A stretch of 64,000 bases of DNA from a virus. The position numbers and the translations under genes were made by a program. The stretch lies in IMG/VR virus record IMGVR_UViG_3300044811_000031, positions 1-64,000 of that record, one strand, 5' to 3'. The notes below the pieces were generated by a model. The model was not told where the DNA came from. It searched no databases and saw only the letters and a program-made list of their open reading frames with translations. This document shows positions 15,486-29,885 of this stretch, in pieces (the stretch's first letter is position 1; every line of letters begins with the position of its first letter).

Positions 15486-15859
15486 TGATCCACCGCAAGA
15501 CAGTAGACGGCACAGCCCTCGCCCACGGCAACGCCGCCCGCTCCGGCCGGGAGTACCGGGAGTGGTTCACGGGGCGCTTCATCCCCCCGGAGTTCGGGCT
15601 GCGCAGCGCCCCGGTCGAACTCAAGTGGTCCCACCGGGACGAGGGCTGGACCCGGGGCTGGTCCGGCGCGGCCGAGGGCACCAGCGTCGTCGTCCTGATC
15701 GAGGGCTCCATGGCGCTGACCTTCCGTGGCTCGGGCAAGCACACCGTCGTGCTGGACGAGCCGGGGGACTACGTCATGTGGGGGCCCGGGGAGCAGCACA
15801 ACTGCCTGGCCCTGGAGGACTGCACCGTCCTCACCGTGCGGTGGGCCGAAGAGATCTAG
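15485..15859 (+). CDS. Cupin-fold protein
   Basis: VELKWS...VVLIEGSMALTF...PGDYVMWGPGEQH. Confidence 0.65.
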   Translation: MIHRKTVDGTALAHGNAARSGREYREWFTGRFIPPEFGLRSAPVELKWSHRDEGWTRGWSGAAEGTSVVVLIEGSMALTFRGSGKHTVVLDEPGDYVMWGPGEQHNCLALEDCTVLTVRWAEEI

Positions 15860-15872
15860 CCATACTGACCCC

Positions 15873-17270
15873 ATGACCACCGACTCGCAGGAGATTGCCA
15901 AGGGCGCAGCGCAGCTGCTGCGCCTCTTCGGCGAGCAGGCCGGTAGGTGGCAGCCCCTGCCCCACCAGGTGCCTCCCGCCCCCGGCTGGTACGGCTGGCT
16001 GCTGATGGCCGGGCGTGGCGCCGGTAAGACCGACACCTGCGCCAAGTACATGGTCGATCACGTCAAGGGTCCGCCGTGCCTGCCGGGCCCTCACCCGCAC
16101 TGGATGGGCATCATCGCCCCCACCCTGGGCGACGCCGCGACCTCCTGCTTCAGCGGGCCGTCGGGCATCAGCGCCCACGACCCCACCGCCAAGATGGTCA
16201 ACACCGTCGGCGGCACGGTGATCAAGTGGGCCAACGGCAGCGAGGCGAAGCTCTTCGGCGCCCACACGGGGGAGGACGTCAACCGGCTGCGCTCCGGTGG
16301 TAACCGGTGCCTTCAATGGCTGGAGGAGCTGGCTGCCTGGCGATACCAGGACGCAGCCTGGGCTCACATGCGATTCGGTCTCCGCTCCGGCCCCCACCCC
16401 CACTGGGTCGGCAGCACGACCCCCAAGCTGCGCCCACTGATCAAGCGGCTCGACCGGGGCGACGTCGAGAACGTCGTGATCACCCGTGCCGCCATGTACG
16501 ACAACCCCCACCTTCCCGAGCACATCCGCCAGGCTCTGGAGGACGAGTACGGCGGCACCGACCTCGGCCGTCAGGAGCTGCTCGGCCAGCTGGTCGAGGA
16601 GGTCGAGGGCGCCCTGTGGAAGCACGCCACCATCGACGCCGCCCGCATCCGGCCGGAGGACATCCCCGCCCTGGCCCGTAAGGTCGTCGGGGTCGACCCG
16701 TCCGGTGGTGCCGGGGAGCAGGGCATCATCGTCGCGGGCAAGAGCGCGCTGCGCCTGCCGCTGCCGGTCATGCCGGTGGAGCAGGGCATCGTCATCCCCG
16801 TCAGCGACCGGCCGCAGTTCCAGGGCTTCGTCATCGCCGACCGCACCACCCACGTCAGCCCGTACCACTGGGGCCGCGCAGCCGTGCAGGCGGCCGTCGA
16901 CTACGAGGCAGACGAGATCCTGGTCGAGGTCAACTACGGCGGCGACATGGCCATAGAGACGATCCGCTCGGCCGCCGACAACATGGGCGTCCCCATCCCC
17001 ATCCGGAAGCTCACCGCGACGCGGGGCAAGGCCGTACGGGCGCAGCCGGTGAGCGCGATGAGCCAGCAGGGCCGGTGGCGCCATGCCGGTGTGTTCGAGG
17101 AGCTGGAAGACCAGATGTGCACCTGGACCGAAGACCTCAACTGGTCCCCCGACCGCCTTGACGGCGCCGTCTGGGACGCGCACGGCCTCAAGCTCGCCCA
17201 CCTCACCGGCGCGGGTACCGGCGCGCTCGGCGGCGGCATGTCCCGACAGATCACCAACGCGAGGCACTGA
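15873..17270 (+). CDS. Terminase large subunit
   Basis: MAGRGAGKT Walker A, WLEELAAW Walker B, VGVDPS nuclease Asp, SPDRLDG. Confidence 0.92.
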   Translation: MTTDSQEIAKGAAQLLRLFGEQAGRWQPLPHQVPPAPGWYGWLLMAGRGAGKTDTCAKYMVDHVKGPPCLPGPHPHWMGIIAPTLGDAATSCFSGPSGISAHDPTAKMVNTVGGTVIKWANGSEAKLFGAHTGEDVNRLRSGGNRCLQWLEELAAWRYQDAAWAHMRFGLRSGPHPHWVGSTTPKLRPLIKRLDRGDVENVVITRAAMYDNPHLPEHIRQALEDEYGGTDLGRQELLGQLVEEVEGALWKHATIDAARIRPEDIPALARKVVGVDPSGGAGEQGIIVAGKSALRLPLPVMPVEQGIVIPVSDRPQFQGFVIADRTTHVSPYHWGRAAVQAAVDYEADEILVEVNYGGDMAIETIRSAADNMGVPIPIRKLTATRGKAVRAQPVSAMSQQGRWRHAGVFEELEDQMCTWTEDLNWSPDRLDGAVWDAHGLKLAHLTGAGTGALGGGMSRQITNARH

Positions 17271-17452
17271 TGATCGCCCTCCCGCTCACCGCCCTGTTCA
17301 TCGTCGTCGTGGTGGCGCTCATTGCCGGTCGGCGTCACCCGTCGATCCCTATCGCGCTGTTCGCCTGCGGGGCGGGCATCCTCATCGGGGACGGGCCGTG
17401 GGGCTCTTCGATGGCACACTTCATCTCGGCCGCGTTCGCTCTGTTCAGCTAG
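17270..17452 (+). CDS. Small membrane protein
   Basis: TGATG coupling; two hydrophobic segments. Confidence 0.55.
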   Translation: MIALPLTALFIVVVVALIAGRRHPSIPIALFACGAGILIGDGPWGSSMAHFISAAFALFS

Positions 17453-17493
17453 TGCGGTACCTTCGTTCCATCGGTCCGATCAAAGGAAGCCCC

Positions 17494-17862
17494 ATGACTC
17501 GCATCTTCGGTCGGGAGCTGGCCGTCTGGCTCGCTCTCGTCGCCGCTGTGATCGGTGTCCTCACCTCGTTCGGCGTCAACGTCGACTCCCATGTCCAGGG
17601 CGTCGTCACTGCCGTCGTGGTCTTCGTGTTCGCGGTGGTCGCGGCCGTCGCCCTGCACGACGGGATCATCGCCCTCGCCACCGGTGTCGTCACCGCCGCG
17701 TTCTCCCTGTTCGCCGCCTTCGGCCTGGAGTGGCCTGCGGAGAAGCAGGGCTACCTGATCGGTGCCCTCACCGTCATCCTCGGGTTCTTCGTCCGCACCC
17801 AGGCGACCTCCCCCGTACCGGCCACCGCTTCCCCGGCGGGCAAGCTCGTGGTCCACGAGTGA
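17494..17862 (+). CDS. Multi-TM membrane protein, possible holin
   Basis: IFGRELAVW...FFVRTQATSP, about 4 TM segments. Confidence 0.6.
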   Translation: MTRIFGRELAVWLALVAAVIGVLTSFGVNVDSHVQGVVTAVVVFVFAVVAAVALHDGIIALATGVVTAAFSLFAAFGLEWPAEKQGYLIGALTVILGFFVRTQATSPVPATASPAGKLVVHE

Positions 17863-19868: not shown

Positions 19869-21749
19869 ATGCCGTGGTACAACGCGCTGGGTATCGGCCG
19901 TAAGCCGCAGCCCACGCAGAAGGACGTAGAGCAGAGGATCTTCGACGCCCTGACCGCTGCCGCCGCCCCCGTCCGGGGCCCGCAGAGCCAGTTCCTCCAG
20001 CACACGCAGGAGTGGCAGAACGAGGCGTGGGCCTACTACGACAGCCTGGGCGAGTTCAGCGCCGCTGCCGACTGGCTGTCCAACATGCTCAGCCGGGTCC
20101 GCCTGCGGGCAGCCGAGATCAGCCCCGACCTGGACGAGCCGACCATCACCGACAAGGGTGCGGCAGCAGAGATCATGGGCTCGCTCGCCGGGGGCGTCGG
20201 TGGCCAGGCCAGCATCATGCGTAACCTGTCCCTCCAGCTCACCGTGCCGGGCGACTGCTACCTGATCGGAGAGGGCGACGTCGGGTCCGAGCAGTGGACC
20301 ATCCGCTCGATCGATGAGGTCCGCGTCCAGAGCGGAAAGTACCAGGTCGTCACCGACCGCATCCCCAACATCACCTGGTCCGATCTGCCCTCCGGCGCGC
20401 TGCCGGTACGCGTATGGCGCCCCCACCCCCGCTACTACCACCTGGCCAACTCGACCAGCCGCGCGGCCCTCGGAGCCATGCGCGAGCTGGAACTCGCCAA
20501 CCGGAAGATCGTGGCTCAGTACCTCAGCCGCCTGGCGTCCGCCGGTGTGCTCGTGCTGCCGAACGAGGTCACCTTCCCGGTGCGCGAGGAGTTCGAGGAT
20601 GCGCCCGATCCCTTCACCGCAGAGTGGATCGAGATCGCGGCCGAGGCCATCCGCACGCCGGGCACGGCCAGCGCCGTCATCCCGATTCCGATCAAGGTCC
20701 CGGCCGAGTACGTCGACAAGATCCGCCACATCGACTTCACGCTGAAGATCGATGAGAAGGACATCGAGCGCCGCGAGAGCGCCATCGCCCGGCTGGCCAA
20801 CAAGCTCGACATCCCGGCCGAGGTGCTCACCGGCCTGGGCAAGGTGAACCACTGGACGGCCTGGCAGCTGGACGAGGGGGCCCTCAAGACCCACATCGCC
20901 CCTCTGTCGGAGATGATCTGCGACAGCCTGACGCGTGGCTACCTGCATCCCCGGCTCAAGGCTTCGGGCATGTCCGACAAGGAGGTCGCTCAGTACGCCG
21001 TCTGGTACGACATGAGCGAGCTGGCCAACCGGCCGGACAAGAGCAAGAACGCCTTCGATGCGTACGACCGCCTGGAGCTGTCGGGTGCAGCGCTCCGGCG
21101 CGAGGGCGGCTTCGATGAGGACGACGCCCCCAACGACGAGGATCTGAAGAACCAGGCCCTCAAGGTGATCATCCATACCCTGCCGTCCGGTGCCATGTCG
21201 GCCCTGGCGCAGCTGATCAACGACCCGTCTCTCCAGCCGATCGTCCCGGTCGCCCCGCAGGCTCCCGACGTCGCCCAGAAGACCCAGGAGGGCCAGACTC
21301 CCGACACGACTCCGGTCTCCGCCGAGAGCCCCGCCGCGAGCGGGTCGGCACCATCGGCCAAGGGGGAGTCGAAGCCTCCGGAGAAGGGAGCCTCGCCCGG
21401 TCCTCCCGCCAAGGGAGAGCCCCCGGCCGACCAGACCAAGGCCAAGGCCGACCGTCTGCTCCAGCAGGCCAAGGCCACCCACGCCGTGCGCTTCAGCGCT
21501 GCGCGCGGGGCGGTGCTGCTCCATCCGCCGCTCTGTGCGGTGGCCGCCTACAGCTGCCCCCACTGGCATGCCGCGACCACGAACACCCCTGGCCAGCTCG
21601 CCTCGGGGACGTACGAGTCCCGGCTCGACGCCGCCGGGCGGATCACCGTCGGCCGTCCGGCTCCCGAGCTGGACACCCGTGAGTGGATCGTCACGCCCGT
21701 CCACTCCCTGACGGCGAAGGGGGCCAAGCGTGACCTCGTCCGTAGTTGA
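19869..21749 (+). CDS. Portal protein
   Basis: Position after TerL; WQNEAWAYYD, SRLASAGVLVLP, NHWTAWQLDE actinophage portal motifs. Confidence 0.8.
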   Translation: MPWYNALGIGRKPQPTQKDVEQRIFDALTAAAAPVRGPQSQFLQHTQEWQNEAWAYYDSLGEFSAAADWLSNMLSRVRLRAAEISPDLDEPTITDKGAAAEIMGSLAGGVGGQASIMRNLSLQLTVPGDCYLIGEGDVGSEQWTIRSIDEVRVQSGKYQVVTDRIPNITWSDLPSGALPVRVWRPHPRYYHLANSTSRAALGAMRELELANRKIVAQYLSRLASAGVLVLPNEVTFPVREEFEDAPDPFTAEWIEIAAEAIRTPGTASAVIPIPIKVPAEYVDKIRHIDFTLKIDEKDIERRESAIARLANKLDIPAEVLTGLGKVNHWTAWQLDEGALKTHIAPLSEMICDSLTRGYLHPRLKASGMSDKEVAQYAVWYDMSELANRPDKSKNAFDAYDRLELSGAALRREGGFDEDDAPNDEDLKNQALKVIIHTLPSGAMSALAQLINDPSLQPIVPVAPQAPDVAQKTQEGQTPDTTPVSAESPAASGSAPSAKGESKPPEKGASPGPPAKGEPPADQTKAKADRLLQQAKATHAVRFSAARGAVLLHPPLCAVAAYSCPHWHAATTNTPGQLASGTYESRLDAAGRITVGRPAPELDTREWIVTPVHSLTAKGAKRDLVRS

Positions 21750-23718
21750 GCAGCTGCACCAGGGCGGACACCACGTGCAGAAGGCCCACGGCCGCCGGGC
21801 AACCAAGCTCGCAGCCGACGGAAGCCACCTGTCCGGCGGGATGATTGCCCTCATGCCCACGGCGGCCGACGCCAAGCGGCTCGCCGTGGGTGGTGGGGAA
21901 CAGGCGTCAGAGCTGCACCTGACGCTGTTCTTCCTCGGTGACGACATGACCCTCTGGAGCGACGACCAGAAGGCTGAGCTGATCGACCATCTGCGCGGCC
22001 TGTCAATCCTCCAGATCGAGGGCACGATCAAGGCGAACATCTTCGGCATCGCCCACTGGAACGCGGGCGGCGACAGCCCCAGCTGGGTGTGGTCCGTCGG
22101 CGACTCGCCGGACAGCACTCCTCTCCAGCGGGCCAAGTCGGTGGCGGTGGAGGCTGTCGAGACGGTCAATGATCGGCCCGAGGTGCCCGTGCAGCACACT
22201 CCCTGGGTCGCTCATATCTGTGCCGCATACACGGACGACCTCAGCCTGGCCAAGACGCTGGAGCAGCGGCTCGGGCCGGTGGAGTTCGACCGGGTCCGCG
22301 TCAGCTTCGGCGACGAGGACACAGACATCCCTCTAGTGAAGGGGTTCACCGCCTCTGGCGTGCTGCGCCGCCAGCCCAACGAGGCTGAGCAGGGCGTCGA
22401 CTTCGAGCTGCTCCAGTCGGTGTGGGCGGCCGGAGTGGACGACGTCCTCCCCAGCCTGAGCGAGGCCATGGGCAAGTGGCGGGACTCCATCACCACGCAG
22501 ATCGCGGAGGTGGTCGACGGGGGCAACCTCGGGAAGCTGGCCCGCGTCTCCGTGGACCCCGGGGAGGCTGCCAGCCTGCTGTACGAGCAGATGCGCTCCG
22601 TCGCTCAGCAGGCCGGTGAGCAGGCTCAGCGGGAGGCTGAGGCGCAGGGCGTCAAGGTCAAGAAGTGGACGCTCACCGGCCGCAAGGAGCGGCTGATGCG
22701 CCGCACGGCCGACGCCATGACCGACATCATGGCCAGCTCTATGATCATGACGGCGAAGCGGCGTGCCCTGGCCAGCTACGGGCCCGACCGGAGCGGCGTC
22801 CAAGTCGCCAAGGAGGTCGAGCAGCAGCTCACCGACCTCAGCGACGCCGTGCCCCGGGAGGCCGTGGGCGCCTCCCTGACCGCAGCCCAGAACGCCGGGC
22901 GCCGGGCCGTACTGGAGTCCGCCCCGCCGGGCGAGTACTACGCCAGCGAGATCCTCGACAAGAGCACCTGCAAGCTCTGCCGCAAGATCGACGGCCAGCA
23001 GTTCGACAGCCTCGACAAGGCGTACGCCGACTACCCCACCGGTGGCTACCGCAAGTGCTCCGGCATGCTGCGCTGCCGGGGGATGGTCGTCGGCCGGTGG
23101 CCCGCGCAGGAGGCCGAGGTCCCCGCCGGGCCCGCGCTGGGCCAGCCCGGCTACCACGCCCTCCACCCGGGCAACGTGGGCCTGGGGCTGCGCCAGCTCA
23201 ACCCTCCCCGGGGCGGCATGGTCGGCTCTCCGGGCTTCTCCGAGGACCAGCACTACGCTGCCATGGCCAACTACGTGGACGACAGCCACGACATCAACGA
23301 GTGGCTGCGCAACCGGAACCTGCCCAGCGGCCGGGACCAGCAGAGCGTCGAGCACGACATCCACGCCCTTGACGACCTGATCGCCATCCAGCCTCTGCTG
23401 ACCGAGGCCCGCGAGGTGTACCGGGGCATGAGCCCGGTCGACCTCAACATCGGCGACGAGTTCCACGATCCGGGCTTCTCCAGCGCCACGGACGAGCGGG
23501 AGATCGCAGAGATCTTCACCATGCGCTCCAAGTTCCAGGGCAAGGGCCAGGGCAAGATCCTCAACATCAATCTGCCGGTGGGTTCGCGAGCGCTGGAGAT
23601 GTACACCGTGGCCAAGCCCGGCGACGACCACGAGAGCGAGTGGATCTTCCCTCCGGGCTCGCAGTTCAAGGTCACCGGCGTGACCCCCGACGGGTACGAC
23701 GTGGAGCTGATCGTATGA
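21730..23718 (+). CDS. 2H phosphoesterase - MuF-like head protein - ADP-ribosyltransferase fusion
   Basis: LHLTL and AHICAAY (2H pair); ASEILDKSTCKLC...CSGMLRCRG (MuF-like); YRG, FSSAT, ESE (ART). Confidence 0.75.
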   Translation: MTSSVVEQLHQGGHHVQKAHGRRATKLAADGSHLSGGMIALMPTAADAKRLAVGGGEQASELHLTLFFLGDDMTLWSDDQKAELIDHLRGLSILQIEGTIKANIFGIAHWNAGGDSPSWVWSVGDSPDSTPLQRAKSVAVEAVETVNDRPEVPVQHTPWVAHICAAYTDDLSLAKTLEQRLGPVEFDRVRVSFGDEDTDIPLVKGFTASGVLRRQPNEAEQGVDFELLQSVWAAGVDDVLPSLSEAMGKWRDSITTQIAEVVDGGNLGKLARVSVDPGEAASLLYEQMRSVAQQAGEQAQREAEAQGVKVKKWTLTGRKERLMRRTADAMTDIMASSMIMTAKRRALASYGPDRSGVQVAKEVEQQLTDLSDAVPREAVGASLTAAQNAGRRAVLESAPPGEYYASEILDKSTCKLCRKIDGQQFDSLDKAYADYPTGGYRKCSGMLRCRGMVVGRWPAQEAEVPAGPALGQPGYHALHPGNVGLGLRQLNPPRGGMVGSPGFSEDQHYAAMANYVDDSHDINEWLRNRNLPSGRDQQSVEHDIHALDDLIAIQPLLTEAREVYRGMSPVDLNIGDEFHDPGFSSATDEREIAEIFTMRSKFQGKGQGKILNINLPVGSRALEMYTVAKPGDDHESEWIFPPGSQFKVTGVTPDGYDVELIV

Positions 23719-24416
23719 CCGACAAGCCGAAGGCTCGTATGGCGATCAGGGACGCCCCTCGCTTCGTCTGGCAGCCCGACGAGATCGTGATCCGCCGGGC
23801 GCCCGCTCCGGTCGCTGCCGCTGCCGAGACCGTGGATCTCCACGGCACCCGGGGCGACCCCGGGTACGGCTCCATGCACCCCGGCAATGCGGGCAAGGGC
23901 AAGGAGCGCCTGGACTCCGGCGGCATGGTCGGCAGCCCCGACTACACCGCCAAGGAGCATCAGGACGCGCTGTCCGACTACACCATCGACACGCTGGACG
24001 TCGGCACCTACCTGCGCACCGGCGAGACCAACCCCGGCGCCGACACCGAGAAGCTGAAGCGGCAGATCGACGTCCTGAGCGACCTCATCGACGTCCAGGA
24101 CCGGACCGGGGAGGACCAGACCCTCTACCGGGGCGCCAAATCCATGCCCGACCTGGTCGTGGGGGACGTCTTCCACGACCGGTCGTTCACGAGTACGTCG
24201 ACTGCGGAGCGCCAGGCCCAGAAGCACGTCAAGTCGTACAAAGGCCAGGGACAGCTCATCACGGTCCATCTCCCCGCCGGATCCAAGGGGCTCAAGGTGG
24301 CTGAGGTGGAGCCCTGGGGCGACAGCGAGAAGGAGTTCATACTCCCGGCGGGCACCAGGTTCCGGGTGACCGGCCGGTCACCCGACGGGGGTCTGCAAGT
24401 CGAGGTGATCGAATGA
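23715..24416 (+). CDS. ADP-ribosyltransferase (VIP2-like, R-S-E)
   Basis: LYRG, FTSTS, EKEFILPAGTRFRV. Confidence 0.8.
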   Translation: MTDKPKARMAIRDAPRFVWQPDEIVIRRAPAPVAAAAETVDLHGTRGDPGYGSMHPGNAGKGKERLDSGGMVGSPDYTAKEHQDALSDYTIDTLDVGTYLRTGETNPGADTEKLKRQIDVLSDLIDVQDRTGEDQTLYRGAKSMPDLVVGDVFHDRSFTSTSTAERQAQKHVKSYKGQGQLITVHLPAGSKGLKVAEVEPWGDSEKEFILPAGTRFRVTGRSPDGGLQVEVIE

Positions 24417-26128
24417 CCAGCGATGCCCAGCGGCGGATGTCCTGGCTTCCTGGGGATATCGTGCTGGAACCCGGCGCTCCCCGTAAGGAGAGCCTGTCAG
24501 CCGACCAGCAGGGAGGGCCCGTGCCCTGGCACAAGGTCCAGAACCATTCTGAGTGCTCAGCGGACAAGCCCTGGGCCGTAGTGAAGGACTCCGACGGATC
24601 CGTGGCCGGGTGCCACGCCTCCGAGGGCGATGCCGACAGTCAGCTGGCCGCTCTCTACGCCAACGAAGGGAAGGCGACCACCGTGGCCGAAGAGCTTGGC
24701 GGGAAGCCGACAGAAGGTACCAAGAAGGACAAGCGGCTGAAGCCGAACAAGATGGCTGAGGAGCCGGTGGAGACCGAAGAGACCGAGCCCCTGACCCTGG
24801 GCCAGGTGGTCGAGCAGCAGCTCGCCGCGAAGGCCGCCGCCCTGGAGGCGCCCGCCATTCCCGAGGACGCCACCACCGCCCCCTGGAAGGGACCGCTCGC
24901 CGTCGAGGGCAAGGTCACCGGGGACGGACGGGAGTTCGCCGCCGACGCCCTCACCTGGGCAGAGCCCCCGCTCCCGCTCCGCTGGAACAAGGAGGACTCC
25001 CACGGTGGAGACCCCCACACCGTGGCGGTCAACGTCGGCCGCATCGACAAGGTCTACCGCGAGAGCGGCCTGATCATGGGCGAGGGCGTGCTCAACCTGG
25101 CGGAGACCGACGGCCAGCGGGTGCACGACATGATCAAGGGCGGCTTCATCCGGGGCGTGTCCATCGACGCCGACTCGATCAGCGATGCGCAGATCGAGTA
25201 CGTCATGCCCGAGGACACCCCCACCGGCGACGACGCCGATCTGTTCGACCTGCTGATGACCCAGCCCGAGAAGATCGTCTTCCACGGTGGGCGGATCAGG
25301 GCGGCGACCCTGTGCGACATCCCCGCCTTTGCCGAGGCGTACATCGCCCTCACCGACGACGAGGGTGCCATCGTCGCCGGAGGTGCCCCGACCGACAAGG
25401 TCCAGGTCCACTCGGTCTACGCCCGCACGGTCGACGGCCTGGTCGCTGACGCCGGTGGTCCCCGCGACACCAACTGGCTCCCCCCGGCCGAGTGGTTCTC
25501 CGACCCCAAGCTGTCCGTCCCCACCGGCATCACCGTGGACGACCACGGCCGCATCTACGGCCACGCGGCCATGTGGGGGGCGTGCCACATCGGGCAGGCC
25601 GACGTGTGCATCCAGCCGCCGCACGAGGACCAGCACCCGTACTACATGACCGGCGAGGTCAAGACCCGCGAGGGTGACCGGGTCGCCGTCGGGCAGATCA
25701 CCGTCGGCACGGGTCACGCGTCCCTCAGCCTGGGGGCGCAGCCCGCTGCCGAGCACTACGAGCACACCGGCCACGCCGTGGCGGACGTCGCTGTCGGCAA
25801 CGATGCCCACGGCATCTGGGTCGCCGGGTCCATCCGGCCGGGGGCCGACCCGCTGCTCGTCCACGAGCTGCGCGCCAGCGGTCAGGTCTCCGGAGACTGG
25901 CGTCGCATCGGTGGCCAGATGCGGATGGTCGGGCTGCTCGCGGTCAACATCCCCGGCTTCCCCGTGCCCCGGGCCCGGGCCCTGGTCTCCAGCGGATCGC
26001 AGGTCGCCCTGGTGGCCGCCGGTCGGCCGACCGTCGCCCATGCCAAGTCGGAGAAGGAGATCATCCAGCAGGCGTTCCGCGTGATGATGGACGGCATGGC
26101 TGGAATCGTTCATGAAGGGAGGGACTGA
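24413..26128 (+). CDS. Capsid maturation protease / head assembly protein
   Basis: Position before capsid; TGDGREF, GVSID, ATLCDIPAFAEA, SGDWRRIGG. Confidence 0.7.
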   Translation: MTSDAQRRMSWLPGDIVLEPGAPRKESLSADQQGGPVPWHKVQNHSECSADKPWAVVKDSDGSVAGCHASEGDADSQLAALYANEGKATTVAEELGGKPTEGTKKDKRLKPNKMAEEPVETEETEPLTLGQVVEQQLAAKAAALEAPAIPEDATTAPWKGPLAVEGKVTGDGREFAADALTWAEPPLPLRWNKEDSHGGDPHTVAVNVGRIDKVYRESGLIMGEGVLNLAETDGQRVHDMIKGGFIRGVSIDADSISDAQIEYVMPEDTPTGDDADLFDLLMTQPEKIVFHGGRIRAATLCDIPAFAEAYIALTDDEGAIVAGGAPTDKVQVHSVYARTVDGLVADAGGPRDTNWLPPAEWFSDPKLSVPTGITVDDHGRIYGHAAMWGACHIGQADVCIQPPHEDQHPYYMTGEVKTREGDRVAVGQITVGTGHASLSLGAQPAAEHYEHTGHAVADVAVGNDAHGIWVAGSIRPGADPLLVHELRASGQVSGDWRRIGGQMRMVGLLAVNIPGFPVPRARALVSSGSQVALVAAGRPTVAHAKSEKEIIQQAFRVMMDGMAGIVHEGRD

Positions 26129-26240: not shown

Positions 26241-26374
26241 ATGGTCCGGATGGGCCTCAGCTTTATTTTCACTGGTCGAACTAAGTATATGATCTTTGGC
26301 TCCTGGGGATTTTTGCGCTACCTTGACCCCGACCAACATCCATTACGCTCTCCGCGTCTATGCCGGAGGTCCCC

Positions 26375-28180
26375 GTGCCCGAGCCGTTCGAGCCGTCCGC
26401 ACTCTTCCCCGCCCCGGATGACCTCGTTCCGGTCTCCGACGTGGATCTGTCCAATCTGGAGACCGAGGGGATCGCGGAGTTCGACCGCGTCCACGCGATC
26501 ACCGACTACACGCCGGAGATGGTGGCCTACGCCATGACTCTCCGCGAAGACCTCGACCGCATCAAGGCCGAGCTGAGCGCCCGTAAGGTCCGCGCGGACT
26601 CGACTGCCGCCGCAGCCAAGCTGCGTGCGCAGAAGACCATGACGGAACTCCAGGAGGCCGTGCACGGACCGGCGGAGGGAACTCCGGAGGGTGCGGCTCA
26701 CGAGACTGAGATGACCGCCAAGCGTGAGGACGCCATCGCTGCCGCAGCGGCCAAGGGTGCTACCGCAGCCCTGGTCCAGGTACTGGCCGACCGGCGCAAC
26801 GGAGCGGCCCTCACCGAGTCCGGCGCCCGCGCCGTGGCCTCCCTGAGCACGACCGCCGCCACGACCCCCAAGCCGAAGGCCCCGACCGCCAAGCTGGCCA
26901 TCACCGCCAGCGCCAACGGTTCGGACATCCCGAGCATGGAGGCCCTCGCCGCCGCGTTCATGGACAAGGCGACCAACATCCCCTCGACCTCGCTCGGACG
27001 CCAGGCCCCCCGTCACAAGGTCGCCAGCATCCGCAACGAGCACGCCCACACCGTGGACGACCGCCGCAACCCCATGCAGGTCCAGGAGATCTGGCGCGAG
27101 CTGGTCAACGGTGGCGGTGACACTGCCGAGGCTCTCGTCGCCGGTGGTGGCTGGTGTGCCCCGAACGAGATCATGTACGACTTCTTCAACATCGCCGGTC
27201 AGCCGAGGACCATCGACCTCCCGACCATCGGCGTGACGCGCGGCGGCATCCAGTTCCCGACGTCGCCCGCCATCGGTGATGTGTTCTTCCAGGCCGGTGG
27301 CAGCAACCCGGCCTCCGGCTTCGGCGGCTTCGCGTTCCCGTTCAACAACGCGTCCGACCCGTGGCTGTGGTCCGAGACCGATGACATCCTCACCGTCACC
27401 GGCTCCGTCAACAAGCCGACCCTCCGGATCCCGTGCTCGTCCTTCACCAGCCAGCGCCTTGAGGCCTACGGTCTCACCGTCACCGCTGGCAACCTGACCG
27501 ACAGCGCGTACCCCGAGCAGACGCAGAACTTCATCCGGCTGCTCCGTGCGGCCTACGCCCACGCGATCAACGCGCGGCTCATCGGCCTGATGGTCACCGC
27601 CTCCGGCGGTGCCAACACCGTCGGTGCGGTCACCACTGACGCAGCCGTGCCCCGCGTCCCGAACGCGGTCGGCCTGGCAGCGACGGACTACCGGACCCGC
27701 TTCGCCATGGACGAGAACGCGGTCCTTGAGGTCGTGCTCCCGTTCTGGCTCCTGGAGGTCATGCGTGCGGACCTCGGCTACAAGCCCGGCCTGAACAACC
27801 TGGCTCTCGCCGCCGCCACGGACGCCGAGATCATCGGCCTCTTCACGGCGAAGAACGTCCGCCCGCAGTTCGTCAGCGACTGGCAGGTGCGCGGAGCCAA
27901 CCAGCTCGGCAACGCGACCGTCCAGCTCGTGTGGCCTGCCTCGGTCCAGTTCATGCTCTACGCGGCCGGGACCTTCGTCCACGGCCAGGGCATGAGCCTC
28001 GACCTCGGTGTCGTCAGGGACTCGATCCTGAACGCGGAGAACGACTTCACCGCCGCATGGGCGGAGGAGACCCACCTGATCGCTCAGGTAGGCCACGCTT
28101 CCCGCCTGTACACCTGCGCCTTCCAGGTCAGCGGCCAGGTCGGCGGCGCAGTCGCCACGCCCAACGGCGCCCACGTCTGA
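26375..28180 (+). CDS. Major capsid protein (hexamer type) with N-terminal scaffold-like region
   Basis: LVAGGGWCAPNEIMYD, DLPTIGVTRGGI, LDLGVVRDSILN; GGAGGT RBS favours GTG 26375 over ATG 26360. Confidence 0.85.
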   Translation: MPEPFEPSALFPAPDDLVPVSDVDLSNLETEGIAEFDRVHAITDYTPEMVAYAMTLREDLDRIKAELSARKVRADSTAAAAKLRAQKTMTELQEAVHGPAEGTPEGAAHETEMTAKREDAIAAAAAKGATAALVQVLADRRNGAALTESGARAVASLSTTAATTPKPKAPTAKLAITASANGSDIPSMEALAAAFMDKATNIPSTSLGRQAPRHKVASIRNEHAHTVDDRRNPMQVQEIWRELVNGGGDTAEALVAGGGWCAPNEIMYDFFNIAGQPRTIDLPTIGVTRGGIQFPTSPAIGDVFFQAGGSNPASGFGGFAFPFNNASDPWLWSETDDILTVTGSVNKPTLRIPCSSFTSQRLEAYGLTVTAGNLTDSAYPEQTQNFIRLLRAAYAHAINARLIGLMVTASGGANTVGAVTTDAAVPRVPNAVGLAATDYRTRFAMDENAVLEVVLPFWLLEVMRADLGYKPGLNNLALAAATDAEIIGLFTAKNVRPQFVSDWQVRGANQLGNATVQLVWPASVQFMLYAAGTFVHGQGMSLDLGVVRDSILNAENDFTAAWAEETHLIAQVGHASRLYTCAFQVSGQVGGAVATPNGAHV

Positions 28181-29180: not shown

Positions 29181-29885
29181 GTGGCCACTACGTCTAACTG
29201 TGCAGCTCCGATCAAGGGGACGCACTACCGCATGGTCAAGGTCGACGTCTGCGGTAACCCGGTTACCGGCGCGTCGTCCGTGCAGGTCATCAGCAAGGCG
29301 TTCGTCCAGGTCGTCATGGACCCGCAGTACGAGGACGGTGTCGAGTTCTTCGAGCGCACCGCCGACGGCTCGGTCTGCGTCAACCAGAAGGACGACCCGG
29401 TACTGAAGCGCTTCAACCTGACGATCGACTTCTGTGAGGTCAACGTCACCGGCGCGGCGTACATGATGAGCGCCCGAGAGCTGGCCGTCACCAACACCGG
29501 CTACGGCTTCGCCGTGGCGGAGGGTGTGCCGAGCAACCGGTACAGCCTGGAGGTCTGGCAGCAGGTCGCCGGTTCCGGCGCCTGTGACGCCTCCGGTCTC
29601 CAGCGCTACATCTACCACGCCTGGCCGAACGTCGGCGCCACCAAGATCGGCGGGTACACGATCGAGAACGGCCGGTCCACTCTCCAGCTCATGTCGGAGA
29701 CCCGCGCCGGTAGCTCGACCGCTGTCACCGGCTGGCTCGACGGTCCCGGCACCGGCACCACCTGGCTCCCGGCCGGAGCGGCGAACGCCGTCGGTGGCGG
29801 CACCGGCGCGCTCGACCACTGGATGTGGAACATCACCACCACGCCTCCGCCCACCGCCGCCTGCTCCCCGGTGACCCTGACGTGA
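29181..29885 (+). CDS. Major tail protein
   Basis: DVCGNP...YEDGVEFFERTADGSVCVN...LTIDFCEV; position. Confidence 0.7.
   Translation: MATTSNCAAPIKGTHYRMVKVDVCGNPVTGASSVQVISKAFVQVVMDPQYEDGVEFFERTADGSVCVNQKDDPVLKRFNLTIDFCEVNVTGAAYMMSARELAVTNTGYGFAVAEGVPSNRYSLEVWQQVAGSGACDASGLQRYIYHAWPNVGATKIGGYTIENGRSTLQLMSETRAGSSTAVTGWLDGPGTGTTWLPAGAANAVGGGTGALDHWMWNITTTPPPTAACSPVTLT

Follow-up and report, generated by a model that had tools for sequence, protein, structure and literature searches.

A predicted 2H phosphoesterase, MuF-like and ADP-ribosyltransferase fusion protein in the head operon of a soil actinophage

Results

A three-domain protein encoded in the head operon

We analysed a stretch of 64,000 nucleotides (positions 1 to 64,000; hereafter the window) of the IMG/VR virus record IMGVR_UViG_3300044811_000031, and identified in its head operon an open reading frame (ORF) of 662 amino acids that joins an N-terminal 2H phosphoesterase domain, a MuF-like minor capsid domain and a C-terminal ADP-ribosyltransferase (ART) domain in a single polypeptide. 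The three domains, the conserved and intact catalytic residues and the position within the head operon are established by this analysis. Judged by sequence, both catalytic sets (2H and ART) look intact, and we propose that the product is probably a packaged minor head protein of a probably lytic actinophage that carries the two enzymes as cargo and is ejected together with the DNA. The window has a GC content of about 68% and represents the first part of an 87.8-kb record rated complete (100%) by CheckV; the source is a high-GC soil actinophage of roughly 88 kb, for which megablast against phage genomes returned no match. Neither a tyrosine integrase (PF00589) nor a serine integrase (PF00239) was found in the whole complete-rated record, and the phage is therefore probably lytic.

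The ORF begins with a GTG codon at position 21730. This long start was retained because it is preceded by a Shine-Dalgarno-like run (AAGGGGG) and because residues are conserved among relatives from about position 3-7 onward; in the database the gene is called from a start 15 codons further in, giving 647 aa. The full-length AlphaFold2 (AF2) model had a predicted local distance difference test score (pLDDT) of 86.5 and displayed three folded domains (residues 30-205, 220-460 and 485-662), with low-confidence linkers at residues 206-209 and 461-484. The gene and its features, all on the + strand, are as follows.

21730..23718, +: 2H-MuF-ART head protein gene, 662 aa (open frame)
21817..22344, +: 2H phosphoesterase domain, residues 30-205 (phrog_2659, AF2, Foldseek, VIA)
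21916..21924, +: first 2H motif, H63-L-T65 (conservation; LigT alignment)
22213..22221, +: second 2H motif, H162-I-C164 (conservation; LigT alignment)
22387..23109, +: MuF-like (SPP1 gp7-type) minor capsid domain, residues 220-460 (sub-threshold profile matches, fold matches, gene position)
22969..23076, +: four-Cys cluster C414, C417, C443 and C449, possible metal site (conservation)
23110..23181, +: flexible MuF-ART linker, residues 461-484 (pLDDT below 50)
23182..23715, +: predicted R-S-ExE ART domain, residues 485-662 (family profile, paralogue, motifs)
23422..23424, +: predicted ART catalytic Arg, R565, in YRG (invariant)
23482..23484, +: predicted ART Ser, S585, of the STS-type motif, here S-A-T (invariant)
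23632..23640, +: predicted ART ExE motif, E635-S-E637 (E637 invariant; E635 in at least 90%)

Proteins with the same 2H-MuF-ART architecture (637-721 aa) are common in metagenomes and are 40-50% identical to the window protein over 94-99% of its length. Two effector domains thus lie in one ORF within a head operon, which is the arrangement that defines a polyvalent protein (Iyer et al. 2017).

The N-terminal domain is predicted to adopt a LigT-type 2H fold

The N-terminal domain matched phrog_2659 at 3.8e-28, a family labelled 'RNA ligase' that is in fact LigT-like. A HMMER search of the whole library with residues 25-215 retrieved 1036 cluster representatives at E<=1e-3, with 759 of them at E<=1e-10, a sequence signal far beyond chance. 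These homologues occur in many architectures: stand-alone proteins of 180-260 aa are common, and in larger proteins the domain is N-terminal, internal or C-terminal. Among 27 stand-alone homologues, 25 matched PF13563 and 12 matched PF02834, while the Acb1 family (PF23474) was matched weakly by two (E 4e-4); the Acb1 model gave no match to the 662-aa protein itself at E<=1. Searched against the PDB sequences, a profile of 27 2H sequences retrieved LigT-type chains only, with both His motifs aligned.

The first-pass annotation of this DNA had read the domain as a 2H fold and had proposed to compare a predicted structure with Acb1 and LigT. This reading was borne out by an AlphaFold model of the domain (pLDDT 90; predicted template modelling score, pTM, 0.85), for which all 50 Foldseek matches at E<=0.001 were 2H enzymes. 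Alignment with VIA-align gave the highest Z score, 14.9, for the LigT-like protein of T. thermophilus (1iuh; 159 aa, root-mean-square deviation 3.2), followed by the Deinococcus cyclic phosphodiesterase, CPDase (5h7e; Z 14.5), 5ldi (Z 13.6) and E. coli LigT and human Usb1 (Z about 13 each). Lower scores were obtained for the rotavirus VP3 phosphodiesterase (Z 11.7), a Burkholderia phage phosphodiesterase (Z 11.2) and the phage Acb1 (7T26; Z 10.1, 130 aa aligned), and the poxvirus cyclic GMP-AMP (cGAMP) phosphodiesterase also matched within the range of Z 10-12. The model thus places the domain within the 2H fold, nearest to the LigT/CPDase type. Of the link to Acb1 drawn in the first-pass annotation, the shared superfamily fold stands, whereas the LigT/CPDase-type enzymes (Z 14.9-13.6) lie nearer; as far as the models can tell, the relation to Acb1 is one of superfamily only.

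The HxC motif appears to be a selected family variant

HLT and HIC motifs about 100 aa apart had been noted previously, and we located them at residues 63-65 and 162-164, a spacing of 99 aa. The first aligns with HLTL and the second with HITL of the T. thermophilus LigT-like protein. In classic 2H enzymes each His is followed, two residues on, by Thr or Ser; the first motif conforms to this rule with T65, while the second departs from it with C164. To assess conservation we used 120 close relatives and 143 cluster representatives sharing 50% identity or less with one another. H63 and T65 were invariant in both sets (120/120 and 143/143), and H162 was kept in 119 of the close relatives and in 141 of the representatives. 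Cys occupied the position of C164 in every close relative; in the wider family the residue was Cys in 79, Thr in 56, Ala in five and Ser in two representatives, and both the Cys and the Thr variant were present in every architecture. That Cys is exchanged for the canonical Thr around a fixed His argues for a working 2H active site, and the conservation pattern indicates a family variant under selection, not decay. The departure from HxT/S pointed out earlier is hence real, while the doubt that it cast on activity has largely been removed.

We also considered whether H162 and C164 might form a Cys protease dyad, as some relatives are annotated 'capsid maturation protease'. This idea was rejected: Thr replaces Cys in 56 of the 143 representatives, and the protease-like region sits in a separate gene of 571 aa and not in the 2H domain.

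The middle domain resembles MuF minor capsid proteins

A Cys-rich, MuF-like middle region had also been recognized in the first reading, and the support for it consists of sub-threshold profile matches, viral fold matches and gene position. Profile hidden Markov models matched below their curated cut-offs: PF04233 (Phage_Mu_F) at E 1.8e-4 with 22.6 bits (cut-off 29.6), and TIGR01641 (SPP1 gp7) at E 2.9e-3 with 18 bits (cut-off 39.65). PF04233 was also matched (E<=0.01) by 10 of 43 full-length relatives. In BFVD, the best match (E 2.8e-14) bore the name 'Head morphogenesis protein', and several proteins named 'Minor capsid protein' ranked next; TM scores were low (about 0.2), as the query was the whole three-domain model. 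The gene lies inside the head module, directly downstream of the portal gene and upstream of the capsid gene. Taken together, a MuF assignment is reasonable for this sequence, yet stays under the curated thresholds. C414, C417, C443 and C449 were invariant in the 43 full-length relatives and are also retained in relatives fused to a protease gene; metal binding by this cluster is possible.

The C-terminal domain matches ADP-ribosyltransferases and has a paralogue downstream

The single 662-aa protein gave no Pfam ART match, and phmmer of this protein against the PDB sequences returned nothing useful. The family was more informative: PF03496 matched 39 of the 43 full-length relatives (best 1.5e-18), and a profile built from the relatives retrieved from the PDB Vis (4.8e-11), ExoT (1.3e-10) and VIP2 (2.9e-8), as well as SpvB, ExoS and C3-type chains. 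In addition, the fused ART is 39% identical (E 5e-39) to the product of the next gene (23715-24416), which itself passes the PF03496 cut-off. Based on these three observations the C-terminal domain is predicted to be an R-S-ExE ART, in agreement with the R-S-E reading made at first from the letters alone. R565, S585 and E637 were invariant among the 43 relatives, and E635 was present in at least 90% of them. In this enzyme family the ExE form points to arginine as the likely acceptor.

The downstream ART gene did not figure in the finding of the first-pass annotation. Its start codon and the stop codon that ends the 2H-MuF-ART gene share the sequence ATGA, and both ARTs share the leader ...PGY..HPGN...GGMVGSP, which in the fused protein begins at the 3' end of the linker 461-484. 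Among 80 related IMG/VR loci, a fused and a stand-alone ART were paired in a single one (L004).

The 2H-MuF core is constant and the ART is a sporadic cassette

The 80 IMG/VR loci related to the 2H-MuF-ART gene were surveyed for their architecture. At about 58 of them the 2H-MuF ORF continues without a stop into a homologue of the 571-aa gene encoded two genes downstream in the window; in cultured Streptomyces phages, the counterpart of these fused loci is annotated 'capsid maturation protease and MuF-like fusion protein'. Eight loci carry MuF followed by ART together with a separate homologue of the 571-aa gene, seven have an ORF that ends right after MuF, in one (L021) the ORF is extended by 315 aa and the homologue of the 571-aa gene stands apart, and at six the ORF runs off the contig. 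In a tree of the 2H-MuF part, the seven ART-bearing rows required seven changes, at least six of them forced by well-supported branches, with L021 coded as 'fused' though it carries the 315-aa ART-like extension. The sister of the window protein in this tree (L006; 60% identity) is without an ART. On account of these fusion counts and changes, the 2H-MuF part is the constant core of the head protein, with the ART as a sporadic, movable cassette at the MuF/protease junction. The two 'warheads' of the first-pass annotation thus have separate histories.

Longer relatives of 780-1150 aa were inspected for other C-terminal toxins. These candidates were mostly rejected, as the forms of 930-1150 aa are fusions to the next head gene. 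Relatives of 766-825 aa (P0052, P0076, P0093 and others; L021:7387-8331) carry after MuF a longer, 315-aa C-terminal domain for which no Pfam match was found. It shares with the ARTs the leader FHGTKGQPGY..LHG and the motifs LYRGS and SFTDG, and it scored 0.94 against ADPrib_exo_Tox clusters in Atlas. As a lead only, it probably represents another class of ART-like domain, more diverged, that occupies this junction as well.

Genes surrounding the 2H-MuF-ART gene

The following genes complete the head region of the window.

15726-17270: large terminase
19869..21749, +: portal gene (phrog_776, 2e-123), directly upstream of the 2H-MuF-ART gene
23715..24416, +: second, stand-alone paralogous ART gene, 233 aa (PF03496 at E 1e-11, over the cut-off; YRG, STS and EKE motifs)
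24413..26128, +: 571-aa head gene, probable prohead protease with a C-terminal domain (phrog_859, 1e-86; phrog_18402, 'head maturation protease')
26360..28180, +: major head protein gene (phrog_777, 1e-102)
29181-29885: major tail protein

The 571-aa gene product gave no significant family in searches of Pfam, NCBIfam and PDB sequences. Its likeness to Peptidase_S78 in Atlas was 0.92, with residues 124-330 resembling HK97-type prohead proteases; Peptidase_S77 was matched at E 0.008 by two of 18 family members, and S196-H197 was invariant. As a lead only, this product is probably the maturation protease, with a conserved domain attached at its C-terminus.

Residues 38-85 of the same product (window 24524-24667) form a mini-domain of about 50 aa with the pattern PWHKV.NHSEC...KPWAVVKDSDGSV.GCH...QLAALYA. 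It recurs at the MuF/protease junction of several relatives (L020, L027, L047, L081 and L031) and at the C-terminus of a stand-alone 2H protein (P0182), and by its sequence looks like a mobile small Cys/His module. Elsewhere in the window, positions 17083-17862 are an unusual location for a lysis gene.

Discussion

A proposed packaged and ejected two-enzyme protein

We infer packaging, processing and ejection, as well as both substrates, along the following lines. Through its MuF middle the protein would be positioned within the procapsid, close to the portal. The prohead protease, whose gene lies two genes downstream, could then process it at the flexible linkers, and the protein or its pieces would exit the capsid together with the DNA. 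In the infected cell, the R-S-ExE ART would, like T4 Alt, ADP-ribosylate proteins of the host, probably on arginine. The phosphodiester cut by the LigT-like 2H domain would be 2',3'-cyclic, 2'-5' or 3'-5' and would belong either to a small nucleotide or to the end of an RNA; cyclic-oligonucleotide or 2'-5'-linked immune signals are the most attractive candidates.

We favour this packaged-and-ejected reading because of the MuF homology, the fusion to head genes, the precedent of T4 Alt and the position of a homologous 2H domain beside the portal genes of Bixzunavirus mycobacteriophages (Catera gp92). It draws further on the gene content of the record, in which we found no RNA ligase (PF09414), RtcB or Macro domain in addition to no integrase. 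Moreover, since the 2H-MuF part and the next head-assembly gene form one polypeptide in most of the 80 relatives, the 2H domain is tied physically to procapsid assembly.

Several points weigh against it. The MuF membership falls below the curated cut-offs of PF04233 and TIGR01641; the fused ART is too diverged for a Pfam match and reads S-A-T in place of S-T-S; and the 2H model is nearer to the housekeeping LigT/CPDase enzymes than to Acb1, the proven anti-CBASS (cyclic-oligonucleotide-based anti-phage signalling system) enzyme. To our knowledge, there is no characterised 2H enzyme in which Cys replaces Thr or Ser after the second His. Finally, we found no experimental datum on the presence in virions or the ejection of any family member, and no virion mass spectrometry of MuF-ART proteins in the literature.

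The substrate of the 2H domain could be a nucleotide signal (cyclic or 2'-5') or else the end of an RNA, and likeness of fold does not discriminate between the two. That the HxC domain is a nuclease packaged in advance, which would enter with the genome and attack host immune nucleotides (signals of CBASS, type III CRISPR or Thoeris) before phage gene expression, is an option that we put forward tentatively. Equally tentative is a variant that leaves MuF packaging and the ART unchanged, in which the 2H domain would heal the 2',3'-cyclic phosphate ends that host anticodon nucleases or toxins leave on RNA, or would cut host RNA as a Usb1-like RNase. LigT, the Deinococcus CPDase and Usb1 are the best structural matches (Z 13-15), the Pfam families matched by the homologues are 2'-5' RNA ligase families, and the RNase option is the one named first by Iyer et al. 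The missing RNA ligase and RtcB nevertheless weigh against an RNA-repair role, as the healing-and-sealing pathway would be incomplete in a record that is itself complete. Nor does likeness of fold at this level fix the substrate; Z scores of 10-12 were also reached by Acb1, rotavirus VP3 and the cGAMP phosphodiesterase of poxvirus. As for the ART, 'anti-defence' is one option, and an Alt-like takeover of the host fits equally well.

We consider two further explanations, each of them improbable. The protein might be a MuF polymorphic toxin (Jamet et al. 2017), whose ART acts against competing bacteria after release or delivery by particles while a cognate immunity gene protects the producer. 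The order of the domains, with MuF N-terminal to a variable C-terminal ART, would suit such a toxin, as would the presence or absence of the ART among very close relatives (seven changes for seven rows) and the second class of ART-like C-domains at the same position. We rate it lowest of all, however: the temperate setting is lacking, as the CheckV-complete record holds no tyrosine or serine integrase, and this, with the lack of a Macro domain, weighs against a temperate-phage toxin; the next gene encodes another ART and not an immunity protein (although immunity proteins are diverse and could be missed); and most relatives are without a toxin, being fused to the protease gene instead. Hardly more credible is a role of the 2H domain in head assembly alone, as a structural or chaperone module within a MuF-protease polyprotein; the protease would remove it before DNA packaging, so that it never reaches the next host. 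In most relatives the domain forms the constant N-terminus of a head-morphogenesis polyprotein and is followed by a flexible linker, which agrees with such a role, but both His residues and the Thr of the first motif are essentially invariant in the 143 representatives, a pattern expected from selection for catalysis and not from a scaffold role, and stand-alone 2H versions of 180-260 aa are common. The packaged-and-ejected reading remains the one that we prefer.

Relation to known systems

The idea of a virion-delivered anti-defence protein with two warheads, as formulated in the first-pass annotation, is right in that both enzyme domains are present, and it is not new (PMC5512222, PMC9503650, PMC7302621). 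Iyer et al. 2017 (PMC5512222) and 2022 (PMC9503650) describe 2H-MuF, 2H-portal and ART-MuF fusions and propose their injection against nucleotide-activated defences. The window gene shares the hallmarks of this effector class: 2H, MuF and an Alt/VIP2-type ART are combined in one late or head-operon polypeptide, and the role proposed is alike, in that the protein would be packaged and injected, the 2H domain would be directed against nucleotide signalling and the ART would modify host proteins. Both papers are computational surveys, and the exact order 2H-MuF-ART was not confirmed in their available text.

Jacobs-Sera et al. 2020 (PMC7302621) reported MuF-VIP2 fusions, predicted to be virion components, in the Microbacterium phages Percival, Goodman and Johann, with a presence that varies between close relatives (the Floof homologue is without it), and also MuF-protease fusions. 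No N-terminal 2H domain was reported for these MuF-VIP2 proteins (PMC7302621), whereas the window protein has one and is accompanied by a separate second ART gene.

Homologous 2H domains are carried by cultured Streptomyces, Gordonia and Mycobacterium phages. In the Streptomyces phages TurkishDelight (gp15) and Mischief19 (gp12), they are found in a 'capsid maturation protease and MuF-like fusion protein' and are 56% and 38% identical, respectively, to that of the window over about 180-210 aa. As in the window, these genes follow the portal gene. At 1147 and 1279 aa, however, their products are far longer than the window protein and the 2H domain is internal; tblastn matched them over the 2H region of the query only, and a 2H domain is absent from their annotation.

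The anti-CBASS nuclease Acb1 (PF23474; PDB 7T26) has the same 2H superfamily fold with two catalytic His residues. LigT-type enzymes match the 2H domain of the window better than Acb1 does. Acb1 itself is small and free, not fused to a capsid protein, and is produced once infection is under way. T4 Alt, as summarised in PMC5512222, is an ART of the R-S-E type that the phage packages in its head and injects along with its DNA. The R-S-E type is what it shares with the ART of the window. Alt reaches the head by a targeting signal of its own and not by fusion to MuF.

Taken together, the window gene is an intact and well-preserved example of an already described, computationally predicted class of probably injected phage effectors. 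New here are the alternation of Cys and Thr at the second 2H motif, the contrast between a constant 2H core and a mobile ART cassette, the fusion of the majority of relatives to a probable protease gene, and the second ART gene downstream; the Cys variant, the majority fusion and the scattered ART are additions to the Iyer papers. The literature consulted contained no bench test of this effector class.

The locus adds no new principle, and its use is that of a clean and intact exemplar. If packaging and activity hold true, the family would provide the first biochemical case of a phage 2H enzyme that cuts signals or RNA and is borne in the capsid, alongside an ART resembling Alt. Testing the family would put the prediction of 2017 to trial, which is practical because cultured actinophages carry homologous 2H domains. 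Should the 2H domain indeed be a nuclease of immune signals, virion-borne signal degradation would be widespread in a very large group of actinophages (1036 clusters at 50% identity).

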